Shown: positions 11,766 through 23,342 of the stretch, in pieces | Layout: each line of letters begins with the position of its first letter | How positions within the stretch are numbered: the first letter of the stretch is position 1 | DNA from: a virus | Strand: one strand, 5' to 3' | IMG/VR virus record: IMGVR_UViG_3300020391_000004 | Location: 67,615 to 131,614 of that record | DNA: 64,000 nt | The notes under the pieces: generated by a model | Seen by the model: the letters and a program-made list of their open reading frames with translations, nothing else | Databases searched by the model: none | Told to the model about the DNA's origin: nothing | Position numbers and translations under genes: made by a program

Positions 11766-11947
11766 TATCCTATCTCATCATTAAGCGGAAGTATTGTAAT
11801 GATAACTTGCCAGTTATTTGGATCATCAAACTCAAACTTGTTAACTCCTGCTTCATCAGCACGTTCTTTTGAATCATATACTCCAACTAACTTAGTATAA
11901 CCTGATTTTTTGTTCTGTTTTTCCACCAAATAAATGCTAGTTGTCAT
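11765..11947 (-). CDS. hypothetical protein
   Basis: 60-aa ORF with coupled start and stop overlaps. Confidence 0.55.
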   Translation of the reverse strand: MTTSIYLVEKQNKKSGYTKLVGVYDSKERADEAGVNKFEFDDPNNWQVIITILPLNDEIG

Positions 11948-12339
11948 AATATTGCTATTCTTTTTTGAATATTATCTACAAGACTACTTAGCCCGTTTCT
12001 CCGTTGTGCAGTAAGTAATTGTCTTATTCCTAGTAACTCTATATCCTGTTTTGTAATTGTTTTAGCTTCTTCTAAATTAATATCAGTAAAACAATCACAA
12101 ATGATACTAGTGATACCTTTTGTGATCATTGCATCACTATCGTAATAAACTTTTACAAGATTGTCTACAACTCCAACATCAATCCATATTTTACTCATAC
12201 AACCTCTAACCAGTCTATCATCAGTTCTTAATTCTTTTGGCAATGATGTGATGTGTTTGGCTAAATCTATTATATAAAATAACCTATCATTCTCATCTAA
12301 ATATTCGAACTCTTCTTTCCACTTTTGTATCTTATTCAT
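11944..12339 (-). CDS. sufE: SufE family cysteine desulfurase activator
   Basis: VRGCMSKIW (catalytic Cys), SDAMITKGI and RRNGL. Confidence 0.9.
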
Positions 12340-12698
12340 TCTTCTGGGCCTGGGTTAGGACTAAAATCTTTTGTCTTATCTTTATCATATCCGTTTGCAG
12401 GATTAAGTGCGTCTGCATTAGGCAATGGCTCTAACTTTTTAGTAATGTTGGGCCAAGCATCAGGCCCTGTACTATGTTTTGTATTGATGTCTAACCAATA
12501 TTGTAATTCGCTTGTCATAACAGTGTCAGGCACTATTGCATCTGCAGGGCATTCAGGTTCACAAACTCCGCAATCTATACATTCGTCTGGATTAATCACA
12601 ACTGTATTTTCGCCTACATAGAAACAATCTACGGGACAAACTTCAACACAGTCAGTGAATCTGCAATTAATGCATTTATCGTTTACAATATATGTCAT
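12336..12698 (-). CDS. fdxA: FdxA-type (7Fe/8Fe) ferredoxin
   Basis: [18 protein letters not shown] and [16 protein letters not shown]. Confidence 0.92.
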
Positions 12699-12716
12699 GA
12701 AATACTTTTCTATAGT

Positions 12717-12754
12717 AAAAAGAGCGAGTAACTATATTTATAATTACCCGCTCT
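12717..12754 (-). terminator. intrinsic terminator after AAA ATPase gene
   Basis: AGAGCG-GGUAA / UUACU-CGCUCU stem followed by U-run. Confidence 0.7.
12735..12742 (-). promoter_or_regulatory. T4-type late promoter TATAAATA upstream of fdxA
   Basis: Exact gp55 consensus, located in the loop of the terminator hairpin. Confidence 0.65.
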
Positions 12755-12763
12755 AGTAAATGA

Positions 12764-12803
12764 ATCGCGATCGGAGGAGAGAGAGGAGAGAGAGTCACGC
12801 GAT
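12764..12803 (-). ncRNA. candidate anti-Shine-Dalgarno RNA hairpin (3' UTR of AAA ATPase gene)
   Basis: AUCGCG/CGCGAU stem enclosing CUCUCUCUCCUCUCUCUCCUCC, two tandem complements of AGGAGAGA. Confidence 0.55.
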
Positions 12804-12812
12804 CCAAACTGT

Positions 12813-13859
12813 TTACACTCGCTTCATACAAGTGCTTTCTGCTAGTACCTTCCAATTGCTAGGACTAATCTTAGCAAGGTCGGCTACTTTCAAAGCCATT
12901 CTTAAACTTACTTCCCTGAACTTGTTACAGTTATCAGCGATAAAGTCTATAACTTCTGTTTCTAATTCTTTACTCATATCGTAACCTTTAAATAGATCAC
13001 CTTTATCTGCAATTTGTTTAACTCTAAGAATTTTATCTCTCATAGTATCTAATGTAAGATCCAAATAATGACATCTACTTTGTAGAGCTTCAAGATGATC
13101 TTGTAACTTCTTACTCCTAACATTCTCAAATTTAATGTTAGTAATAAAACAAGCACTGCCTTTAAATTCAAACTTATCTGGTATACCTTCACTTCTTAAT
13201 TTGTTACTTTCGGCATTCCAATATATCATTCTCTTCTTACCACTATCAAGTGCAGCCTTAAGAATGTTAAGTGCAAGATCATCCATTAATACACTATCAC
13301 AGTCATCAAACACTAAAACATTGCCTTTGTCTGAAAACTCATATAACTTTGCATAAAGTCCTAGTGCAGTCATTGCACCTTTAACAACTTCGTACTTACG
13401 TCTGCTACCTGCCATATCACCAAACAAACTACTTTTGTTTAGTTCTTCTTCAACACCATAACTTTTACCAACCCCCGGAGGACCAGTAACAATTAATGCT
13501 CTTATATCACTGTTTACAAGAGACTTAGTCATCTGATCTAATATCTCAAATCTAGTGCCAATTTCTGCAATTCTTTTTGCATCTTGTTCTGCAGTAAACT
13601 TAGGCTCTGCTTTTGCAACTACATCTGCTTTTGCACCTTCTTGCACATTAAAACTATCTTGCTCAACAAACTTAATATCTTCAGGTGTGTTTACTGCAAC
13701 ACGAATTTTTGTAGCCATATCACCAAATCTACAACTACCGTTGACAGTAACAAAACCTCCACCATCTTTTTTACTTTGAAAATTCTTAATTAAAGGAAAT
13801 ACAGTATTCTGTACTGCTTGATTCCTGTAACTACCGTTCTTGACTAATACATATGACAT
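12813..13859 (-). CDS. AAA+ ATPase family protein
   Basis: Walker A GPPGVGKS, Walker B VLVFDD, arginine-finger region SRC. Confidence 0.85.
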   Translation of the reverse strand: MSYVLVKNGSYRNQAVQNTVFPLIKNFQSKKDGGGFVTVNGSCRFGDMATKIRVAVNTPEDIKFVEQDSFNVQEGAKADVVAKAEPKFTAEQDAKRIAEIGTRFEILDQMTKSLVNSDIRALIVTGPPGVGKSYGVEEELNKSSLFGDMAGSRRKYEVVKGAMTALGLYAKLYEFSDKGNVLVFDDCDSVLMDDLALNILKAALDSGKKRMIYWNAESNKLRSEGIPDKFEFKGSACFITNIKFENVRSKKLQDHLEALQSRCHYLDLTLDTMRDKILRVKQIADKGDLFKGYDMSKELETEVIDFIADNCNKFREVSLRMALKVADLAKISPSNWKVLAESTCMKRV

Positions 13860-13885
13860 TCATCTCTCCATTTATGTCTTTGTTT

Positions 13886-14167
13886 TTAACTATAATTAAT
13901 AATAACATCTTTATTATCTGTGTCAACCTTAAAACCTAAATATTCTGCAGTTTCATAAATTAACTTTAATCTTTTTACACCTATACCAGGGATTTTAAGT
14001 AATTCTTTTTGAGTAATAGTTAAATCATTATAATTACATTCAAACTGACTGGCAAAAAAATCCATCTTTCTAAGTTCACCTGGAGTTTTACCTAATACTG
14101 CAAAATCAGACTTTAATTTATTATAAGGTATACTTTCATATTTACGAGCAAAATCACCAAATGTCAT
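13886..14167 (-). CDS. small protein with RNA polymerase alpha-CTD/HhH-like motif
   Basis: NDLTITQKELLKIPGIGVKRLKLIYE resembles the alpha-CTD dL...eLl.i.n.G.KS..EI pattern. Confidence 0.45.
   Translation of the reverse strand: MTFGDFARKYESIPYNKLKSDFAVLGKTPGELRKMDFFASQFECNYNDLTITQKELLKIPGIGVKRLKLIYETAEYLGFKVDTDNKDVIINYS
13899..13926 (-). promoter_or_regulatory. early promoter TTGACA-N16(TGT)-TATTAT
   Basis: Read directly; one of 8 copies. Confidence 0.85.
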
Positions 14168-14406
14168 TATATCATCTCATCTTGTGAATATTTGTAAGTA
14201 TTATATTGATCTTTGTAACATTCTACAAAATTGTAAATAGTTTTAACAAGTTTTATATCCTTAACACCACCAGTTGATTGGGCAATATCCATCATACTTA
14301 GTAGATCTTTTTCTGCACTACTTATTGAATCATGCTTACCAGTTTCATATTCAACTGTAACACTATCTTCTTTAACTACACCTGTTAATTGTATTTTCTT
14401 TTTCAT
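14167..14406 (-). CDS. hypothetical early protein
   Basis: 79-aa ORF with AGGAGAGA RBS behind an early promoter. Confidence 0.7.
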   Translation of the reverse strand: MKKKIQLTGVVKEDSVTVEYETGKHDSISSAEKDLLSMMDIAQSTGGVKDIKLVKTIYNFVECYKDQYNTYKYSQDEMI

Positions 14407-14421
14407 AAAGTTCTCTCCTAA

Positions 14422-14448
14422 TTTCTAACTATGCTGTTATAATAACAT
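14422..14448. repeat. 27-bp direct repeat (copy at 20411-20437) covering -10 box and leader
   Basis: TTTCTAACTATGCTGTTATAATAACAT is identical at both sites. Confidence 0.9.
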
Positions 14449-14466
14449 CGTTAGGATAGTTGTCAA
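14439..14466 (-). promoter_or_regulatory. early promoter TTGACA-N16(TGT)-TATTAT
   Basis: Read directly. Confidence 0.85.
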
Positions 14467-14467
14467 C

Positions 14468-14899
14468 CTATGTACTGAACTTTTTAATTCTTTTTTCATG
14501 TCTACCACCATCAAATTTTGTTTGTAAAAATGTATCTACAATATCTATTGTATCTGGTTCCAATGTTTGTAATGATCCGCCTAAACATAAAATATTACAA
14601 TTACCATGTGATCTAGCCTGTTCTGCTAATTCAATATTAAAACATAATGCTGCTCTTATATTTCTATGTTTATTTGCAGTAATAGCCATTCCTTGTCCAG
14701 TTCCACAAACTAATATTCCATAATCATATCCATTATGTAGTACGTAGTGTACTACTTTTTCAGCATAGTCCGGATAATCAACACTGTCCTCACTATGAGT
14801 GCCTAAATCAACATAGGCATGTTCTGTACTATCTAAATGTTCTTTTATCCATTCTTTTAATTTATAACCACCGTGATCACTTGCTATTGCTATTCTCAT
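14468..14899 (-). CDS. rpiB: ribose-5-phosphate isomerase B
   Basis: IASDHGG, DYPDYA, GILVCGTGQGM, ANKH, HGNCNILCLG and GGRHEKR; ATGA overlap with the upstream gene. Confidence 0.95.
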   Translation of the reverse strand: MRIAIASDHGGYKLKEWIKEHLDSTEHAYVDLGTHSEDSVDYPDYAEKVVHYVLHNGYDYGILVCGTGQGMAITANKHRNIRAALCFNIELAEQARSHGNCNILCLGGSLQTLEPDTIDIVDTFLQTKFDGGRHEKRIKKFST

Positions 14900-23001: not shown

Positions 23002-23135
23002 TAGAAAAACTTTGCATTATCATTATTTAAAAATGCTAAAACACCAGCCATAATTAGAAATCCCCAAATAATACAATTAATTTTAATTAAATATCCAAAG
23101 TGAGAATATCTAATTAAATAATAAATTTTAGTCAT
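23001..23135 (-). CDS. 44-aa membrane micropeptide
   Basis: Translated by hand; one TM segment; TAATG coupling. Confidence 0.5.
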   Translation of the reverse strand: MTKIYYLIRYSHFGYLIKINCIIWGFLIMAGVLAFLNNDNAKFF

Positions 23136-23316
23136 GATACCCATCATCTTCATCCAATACTTTTATTACAGGTTTTTTGGCATGACTTATTTCATTATCT
23201 ACGTCTTTAGTAACACTTATTTCATTATCTACAAAAGGAAGCATTAATTGCTCTTCATTAATACCATATTTGTCTTCCATTTGTTTAGCCCATTCAAATA
23301 AATCTTCTTGTGTCAT
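23128..23316 (-). CDS. hypothetical protein
   Basis: GGAG RBS; 62 aa. Confidence 0.6.
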   Translation of the reverse strand: MTQEDLFEWAKQMEDKYGINEEQLMLPFVDNEISVTKDVDNEISHAKKPVIKVLDEDDGYHD

Positions 23317-23342
23317 ATTTACTCCATTTAATTAAAATTAAT

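Follow-up and report, generated by a model that had tools for sequence, protein, structure and literature searches.

Hairpin 1, a pyrimidine-looped RNA hairpin just downstream of the stop codon of an NrdC.10-like AAA+ ATPase gene in an uncultured jumbo phage, is probably this lineage's form of a conserved 3′-UTR anti-ribosome-binding-site element that limits translation of the ATPase mRNA. In relatives of the phage, the 3′ element is complementary to the Shine-Dalgarno sequence (SD) and spacer of the same ATPase gene, and the two sites change together when the start region is compared with the 3′ UTR locus by locus. Judged from these sequences, the conserved partner of the element is the ribosome site of its own gene and not primarily a set of early genes.

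Genomic Setting and the ATPase Gene

The window, a stretch of 64,000 nucleotides, is a piece of a 131,614-bp IMG/VR viral contig with an estimated completeness of 38% and a G+C content of about 32%. The minus strand codes nearly all genes of this contig, whose source is an uncultured jumbo phage. The gene at 12813-13859 (minus strand, as are the features below unless stated otherwise) encodes the NrdC.10-like ATPase of 348 aa (phrog_1250), which has an N-terminal beta domain followed by an AAA+ core and a lid. It is a homologue of T4 NrdC.10, with 36% identity across residues 100-340. The protein has matches in 1,308 phage records, and the ATPase search yielded more than 580 related IMG/VR contigs. 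Among cultured phages, the PA5oct-like Pseudomonas jumbo phages are nearest, with 41% identity in Cassandra. In the AlphaFold model (pLDDT 84), the beta domain lies N-terminally to a generic AAA+ core and lid, and NorQ/MoxR, RuvB, RFC, and Orc/Cdc6 match this model about equally in Foldseek. Because the fold is a generic AAA+ one, assignment of a specific function from the fold search was dropped.

A ferredoxin gene and a SufE gene lie 3′ of the ATPase unit. These adjacent genes (11944-12698), the first encoding a 2x[4Fe-4S]-type ferredoxin with DUF3470, make up an Fe-S cluster auxiliary module. When the DNA was searched against cultured phages, the ferredoxin gene alone was matched (Acinetobacter phage MD-2021a).

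Architecture of the Transcription Unit

The ATPase unit is preceded by a sigma-70-type promoter (TTGACA, 16 nt, TG-TATTAT; 13899-13926) that matches the consensus at 11 of 12 positions, and transcription would start near 13890-13892. By sequence and predicted folds, the 5′ UTR is about 32 nt long (13860-13892), and the SD, GGAGAGA (13863-13869), stands 3 nt ahead of the AUG, in the loop of a weak local hairpin formed by GACAU and AUGUC. In the leader hairpin of the window (13850-13880) and of the related loci L002, L004, L011, and L013, upstream bases pair with AUGUCA, that is, with the start codon and codon 2; in L011 and L013, a synonymous change of codon 2 from UCA to UCU is matched by an upstream change from U to A.

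At the other end of the gene, the stop codon UAA (12813-12815) is followed by nine nucleotides, the stem of hairpin 1, and then a terminator hairpin. The latter, hairpin 2 (12716-12754; RNAfold and terminator scan), comprises 15 pairs and a U tract, ends the ATPase transcript, and is the sole terminator-like site within 12500-14500, where the scan places it at 12721-12754. Hairpin 1 has no U tract and is thus not an intrinsic terminator itself. The initial annotation had assigned hairpin 1 to the 3′ UTR of an early-promoter gene, just ahead of a terminator, and this placement was borne out, the promoter being of the form TTGACA-16-TATTAT.

The first gene of the upstream early operon, an ORF of 79 aa, has the SD AGGAGAGA at 14412-14419, and a promoter scan places the early promoter of this operon at 14439-14466. 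Since no terminator-like site lies between this promoter and 12754, the SD at 14412-14419 can share one long transcript with hairpin 1, and transcripts from 14439-14466 should also end at hairpin 2, the only such site. The first gene of the upstream operon thus probably shares the ATPase terminator.

The loop of the terminator (12731-12745) reads UAUAAAUA, which we take to be the T4 late-promoter consensus; relatives carry UUUAGAAAUAGA, so the likeness is probably due to chance. In relatives, the -35 element of the following promoter sits in the 3′ arm of hairpin 2. In eight of these loci (L004, L006, L011, L013, L025, L057, L068, L076), a -35 element TAGACA within the terminator 3′ arm forms a PeSL-like composite of terminator and promoter, and the next gene (GDSL-like in many) starts 5-8 nt past a TGnTATAAT -10 box, a distance that suggests leaderless mRNAs for the gene after hairpin 2.

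Hairpin 1 and Its Pyrimidine Loop

Hairpin 1 (12761-12806) consists of a 5′ arm at 12798-12806, a loop at 12770-12797, and a 3′ arm at 12761-12769. A 6-bp stem closing a 28-nt loop had been described here; both are present, and in the RNAfold prediction the stem is in fact 9 bp long (UGGAUCGCG / CGCGAUUCA), containing the 6-bp one, with the 28-nt loop fully open. Hairpins 1 and 2 fold together (12700-12815) with a predicted energy of -31.4 kcal/mol (RNAfold, z = -4.56), and none of 200 shuffled sequences was as stable.

The 22 consecutive pyrimidines, the two complements of the early SD, and the CCUCC reported for this loop are all found there. The pyrimidine run (12773-12794), which is unpaired and predicted to cost about 0.05 kcal/mol to open, is the longest purine or pyrimidine run of the 131,614-bp record, and Tandem Repeats Finder resolves it into 2.3 perfect copies of the 9-nt unit UCUCUCCUC. 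The loop presents UCUCUCC(U) twice along with CCUCC, and the repeated UCUCUCCU is the complement of AGGAGAGA. The minus strand of the window has 8 copies of this SD, where 1.2 would be expected for the two strands combined, and 0 of 100 shuffles reached 10. Every one of the 8 copies lies directly upstream of an ORF start, in agreement with the earlier statement that the loop complements the ribosome-binding site (RBS) of at least seven early genes. The complementary word UCUCUCC is rare on the sense strand of the record, with 4 copies (2 of them in this loop) vs. 15 of GGAGAGA. Rfam, with its CU-rich sRNA families such as cuckoo/CcsR, AbcR, RsaE, and RNAIII, returned no match at gathering thresholds in the 64 kb, and only chance-level ones at E <= 10 in 12650-12900.

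Two other features of the locus were considered and set aside. A plus-strand SD serving an antisense ORF was rejected since no credible ORF is present. The ATCGCGAT palindrome, noted initially in one arm of the hairpin, does exist; relatives do not conserve it, so it is incidental and was rejected as a site.

Conservation of Hairpin 1 in Relatives

A C/U-rich-loop hairpin right after the ATPase stop codon recurs in relatives whose protein identity is as low as about 58-65%, and the sequence of its stem is wholly different from lineage to lineage. In an alignment of 14 sequences, RNAalifold found compensatory changes in five of six pairs. For the 9-pair stem, 86.9% of the cells are paired, compared with 65% after shuffling of columns and 28-43% after sliding of the partner, and double changes are seen in eight of the nine pairs. 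The covarying stem includes G.U pairs. The covariation of the stem and its conservation indicate that hairpin 1 is a selected RNA structure.

The length of the loop differs among close relatives by CU or CUC units. The anti-SD segment has an unpaired probability of 0.71, against 0.40 for the remaining 3′ UTR (Wilcoxon p = 4e-14, n = 85). This segment falls within the hairpin loop in 36 lineages, and elsewhere overlaps or abuts the stop codon.

Co-variation of the 3′ Element With the Ribosome Site of the Same Gene

The SD and the 3′ site co-vary through more than 15 different sequence pairs. The window has GGAGAGA on the SD side and UCUCUCC on the 3′ side, while relatives have, in the same order, GGAGAGAGA and UCUCUCUCC, AGGAGCAAG and CUUGCUCCU, GGAGGAGCAA and UUGCUCCUCC, AGGAGUAACUAU and AUAGUUACUCCU, AGGAGCUA and UAGCUCCU, AGGAGCAUUC and GAAUGCUCCU, UAACGGAGUAUC and GAUACUCCGUUA, GGAGUGAGAU and AUCUCACUCC, UGGAGAUGAGU and ACUCAUCUCCG, or GGAGUGUGU and ACACACUCC. 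As expected from the anti-SD role first proposed for the loop, these relatives with other SDs carry a matching 3′ element. One clade displays the path from GGAGUA:UACUCC through GGAGUG:UACUCC, with a G.U pair, to GGAGUG:CACUCC. In deeper lineages, the complement extends over 10-14 nt, reaches the start codon, and occurs a single time in the contig. In the 204-kb contig of L021, for example, the 12-mer AGGAGTAACTAT is found exactly twice, as the SD and as the reverse complement of the 3′ element, with no one-mismatch copies elsewhere in the contig. Similarly, the 10-mer AACGGAGTAT of a 54-kb contig is a unique pair flanking the ATPase gene.

Among 44 non-redundant lineages, start regions and 3′ UTRs that belong together form a predicted duplex of -14.2 kcal/mol on average, vs. 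-11.0 kcal/mol for mismatched combinations, and the longest Watson-Crick run averages 7.16 for matched and 5.80 for mismatched pairs. In a permutation test on these lineages, 0 of 20,000 permutations reached the observed value. The difference persisted when each protein cluster was reduced to one representative, both at 90% identity (67 clusters, p < 5e-5) and at 80% (32 clusters, p = 1.5e-4); at 70% identity, single linkage places 173 loci in one cluster, which leaves no power. With the conserved GGAG:CUCC core as a fixed anchor, Watson-Crick pairing continues into the flanks for 4.35 nt on average, compared with 1.56 nt for mismatched controls. Of 67 lineages, 66 have a Watson-Crick pair at the first flanking position (C-G 29, U-A 25, A-U 9, G-C 3), and on a minimum spanning tree of the 67 lineages, 39 of 58 double changes retain Watson-Crick pairing.

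The complementarity is not universal. About one third of the non-redundant relatives have no complement of at least 7 nt. Among cultured phages bearing a homologue, T4, nt-1, D481, slurp01, phiA8-29, and the Klebsiella T4-like AM_K3 have no 5′-3′ complement, and KARL-1 is borderline. The Cassandra/PA5oct-like phages have 8 Watson-Crick and 4 G.U pairs, yet a local hairpin takes up the 3′ partner in one of its arms. In Cassandra (L243, OR805292; 2350-2400), the complement of the start region is the 3′ arm of a 9-bp hairpin whose 5′ arm copies the start region, an arrangement that, as read from the sequence, could be a switch or a coincidence. Of the four ncRNAs listed in the PA5oct RNA-seq paper, none is at the homologous locus.

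The comparative data indicate that the loop, or an unstructured equivalent at the stop codon, is under selection as the partner of the SD of its own gene. It is highly unlikely that no regulatory pairing takes place at all, with hairpin 1 serving as a 3′-end stabiliser, its loop being a slippage-prone (CU)n tract, and the complementarity being a coincidence of low complexity. The loop is indeed a perfect tandem repeat whose length varies by CU or CUC in close relatives, and the 7-nt match of the window is not significant alone. However, co-variation is also seen where neither partner is of low complexity (AGGAGUAACUAU, UAACGGAGUAUC, AGGAGCAUUC, UGGAGAUGAGU), coincidence cannot account for the unique pairs in large contigs or for the permutation and anchored tests, and aSD-like words are otherwise avoided on the sense strand. 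The neutral microsatellite named in the initial annotation as a refuting outcome is likewise not what is found: the length of the loop does vary by slippage, yet it stays tied to the SD.

The partners formally make up a short inverted repeat with arms about 1.05 kb apart, and pyrimidine-rich loops are able to bind proteins. A role of the repeat at the DNA level, as a recombination or inversion site, or of the CU-rich loop as a dock for an RNA-binding protein, is nevertheless most improbable. The counts of G.U and A.C combinations in the long-range helix (56 vs. 49, with few interior cases) do not discriminate between the strands, nor between selection on RNA and selection on DNA. However, one arm is always the SD with its spacer, while the other is always in the same transcript ahead of the terminator, where a hairpin with a covarying stem that includes G.U pairs usually leaves it exposed. 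Among about 240 loci, none has the gene in inverted orientation, and a protein site would have no need to follow the bases that flank the SD. Reading the long-range pairing at the level of RNA is thus based on transcript position, accessibility, and the covarying hairpin.

Pairing Within the Window

The match of the window to its own gene is 7 nt long (GGAGAGA, 13863-13869) and is offered twice in the loop. It is shorter than the 8-nt match to other early genes and, taken alone, no better than chance for a single gene; its meaning is derived from the comparative data. Opening of the SD is predicted to cost 1.75 kcal/mol and that of the loop sites about 0.05 kcal/mol, and the 7-mer duplex has a predicted energy of -10.1 kcal/mol. 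A longer, imperfect duplex, which covers the start codon and enters codon 2, reaches -16.0 kcal/mol, while pairing of the ATPase leader with a generic 16S tail yields -7.6 kcal/mol. In the predicted fold of the full-length transcript, the 5′ hairpin is weak, and the SD and the anti-SD are both located in loops. This model suggests a loop-loop contact between the two. A genome-wide RNAduplex scan with the loop was uninformative, being swamped by purine-rich coding segments.

A survey of complements between the 5′ and 3′ ends of the same gene over all genes of the record indicates that they are not a general property of this phage's genes. The sole other outlier among about 190 genes is an ORF of 62 aa (start at 23316, in the region of about 23050-23340, minus strand). 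Its start region, UAAUUUUAAUUAAAU, is perfectly complementary over 15 nt to a site about 38 nt past the stop codon of this ORF; the sequence is AT-rich and partly palindromic.

Potential Action on Other Early Genes

The anti-SD function suggested in the initial annotation was partly upheld. The element is conserved, single-stranded, and tracks SDs, whereas the partner conserved in deep lineages is the ATPase gene's own SD and spacer rather than the AGGAGAGA early genes. It is possible, though doubtful, that hairpin 1 and the terminator form a stable 3′-UTR-derived sRNA of ~90 nt that switches off early mRNAs with the private SD (A)GGAGAGA, an activity that would be compatible with pairing to the element's own gene. 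GGAGAGA is the commonest extended SD of the record, found in 12 start regions vs. 4 for the next triplet after GGAG, and the exact AGGAGAGA copies all precede ORF starts, as described above. In close relatives, small early genes share a lineage-specific SD that fits the loop (GGAGAGAGU in L009, AGGAGCAAG in L036, GAGGAGCAA in L039), and a 55-kb contig has 7 copies of GGAGCAAG and none of a control pattern. The loop also holds two tandem seeds, and the succession of hairpin and terminator is compatible with a discrete 3′ fragment sharing the terminator of the mRNA.

A possible sRNA promoter is seen in a sister subclade, where TTGCAT, 17 nt, and TA(T/C)AAT occur just 5′ of hairpin 1. In seven loci (L011, L013, L015, L022, L025, L027, L036), TTGCAT falls in the last codons of the ATPase gene and TA(T/C)AAT lies 7-16 nt before hairpin 1. 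However, this candidate was not called by a consensus scan and its -35 element matches at 3 of 6 positions, while the window has no -10 box upstream of hairpin 1 and hence no internal promoter for it. Recombination of promoter/terminator cassettes, in the terms in which one report describes them, has probably homogenised the early leaders (PMC4122927), so the shared SDs could be a by-product. Furthermore, deeper lineages have a complement that extends 10-14 nt into the gene-specific spacer and matches no gene but the ATPase one, which argues that the ancestral target was a single mRNA. For the clade of the window, where the loop is duplicated and thus also fits the 11 other GGAGAGA start regions, action on these in trans is possible as far as their sequences indicate.

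A broader version, in which an abundant sRNA made of hairpin and terminator mimics the 16S anti-SD, is tuned to the private extended SD of the phage, and shuts down the whole early class including its own gene, appears unlikely. If true, this sRNA would be an RNA-only counterpart of the early shut-off by T4 RegA and RegB and, in combination with the later genes that look leaderless, would drive a temporal translation switch. The Pfam profiles of RegA and RegB have no match in the record, which is about 38% complete; control genomes are likewise without a match.

Proposed Mechanism

Under the preferred explanation, in which hairpin 1 restrains translation of its own mRNA, the loop would pair with the ATPase SD once the 3′ end has been transcribed, either intramolecularly or between separate copies or processed 3′ fragments. 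With about -10 to -16 kcal/mol for the duplex vs. about -7.6 kcal/mol for the 16S tail, binding of the 30S subunit would be blocked, and the duplex might also expose the ATPase mRNA to decay. ATPase synthesis would then be confined roughly to the time in which the transcript is being made. In the clade of the window, both partners have turned into (GA)n and (CU)n repeats. Speculatively, the two tandem seeds may correspond to the two ribosome entry sites of the long operon transcript (14412-14419 and 13863-13869). Both the sign of the effect, repression, and its mode, cis as opposed to trans, are what we infer for this element.

Comparison With Known Systems and Significance

The sRNAs CcsR/cuckoo, AbcR, RsaE, RNAIII, and Yfr1 have hairpin loops with CCUCC or UCCC that pair with SD regions. 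Whereas these are independent sRNA genes with many targets, the phage element belongs to an mRNA and has this very mRNA as its conserved target. Among phages, the hairpins in the early transcripts of T4 e, soc, and I-TevI hide the SD locally, lambda sib brings about RNase III decay without SD pairing, and the long-distance pairing in MS2 lies within coding RNA. The present case resembles them in that phage translation is set by a structure hiding the RBS or by a 3′ site acting back, although to our knowledge none of them is a 3′-UTR anti-SD element. The PeSLs of T4-like phages are described as terminator/promoter cassettes (PMC2839356, PMC4122927). Hairpin 2 and the overlapping next promoter are similar to such cassettes, which may explain the shared early leaders. 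As described in these reports, PeSLs feature neither an anti-SD loop nor a complement to an upstream RBS, and the description does not cover hairpin 1.

The closest likeness is to icaR of Staphylococcus aureus, where base pairing of a 3′-UTR motif, UCCCCUG, with the SD prevents initiation and gives rise to a site for RNase III (Ruiz de los Mozos et al., 2013; PMC3868564). As in icaR, a pyrimidine-rich anti-SD in the 3′ UTR is complementary to the SD of the same mRNA, here over 7 nt twice in the window and up to 14 bp in relatives, and compensatory evolution of the pairing is evident from the permutation, cluster, anchored, and spanning-tree tests. By analogy, the predicted pairing would block initiation and/or lead to cleavage by RNase III. 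The two elements have no sequence relationship, and the 3′ UTR of the phage gene is about 95 nt long, whereas that of icaR is long, having been selected among 3′ UTRs of more than 100 nt. Also, the phage motif is usually found in a hairpin loop or over the stop codon, and the evidence for it is covariation, whereas that for icaR is experimental.

In Bacillus subtilis, the RBS is bound in vivo by pyrimidine-rich, aSD-like 8-mers placed hundreds of nucleotides downstream; this pairing inhibits initiation and favours decay, and words of this type are scarce in genes (Gill et al., 2025, preprint; PMC12697547). On the sense strand of the phage, aSD-like words are similarly scarce. However, the B. 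subtilis system consists of synthetic insertions and genome-wide avoidance, whereas the phage case is natural, conserved, and apparently selected.

In bacteria, icaR is the main known case of a 3′ UTR that pairs with the SD of its own mRNA, and a search of the full-text literature yielded no phage example of a 3′ UTR pairing with its own SD. The recent synthetic work indicates strong repression by aSD-like words at a distance and a general avoidance of them, while here a natural one has been retained and reshaped over the long term, in a large family of environmental jumbo phages in which about 580 or more IMG/VR contigs carry the ATPase gene. The element would be the best comparative evidence so far for long-range RBS pairing as a selected regulatory device. 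It also flags the NrdC.10-like AAA+ ATPase, which is conserved and uncharacterised, as a protein whose dose matters to the phage.
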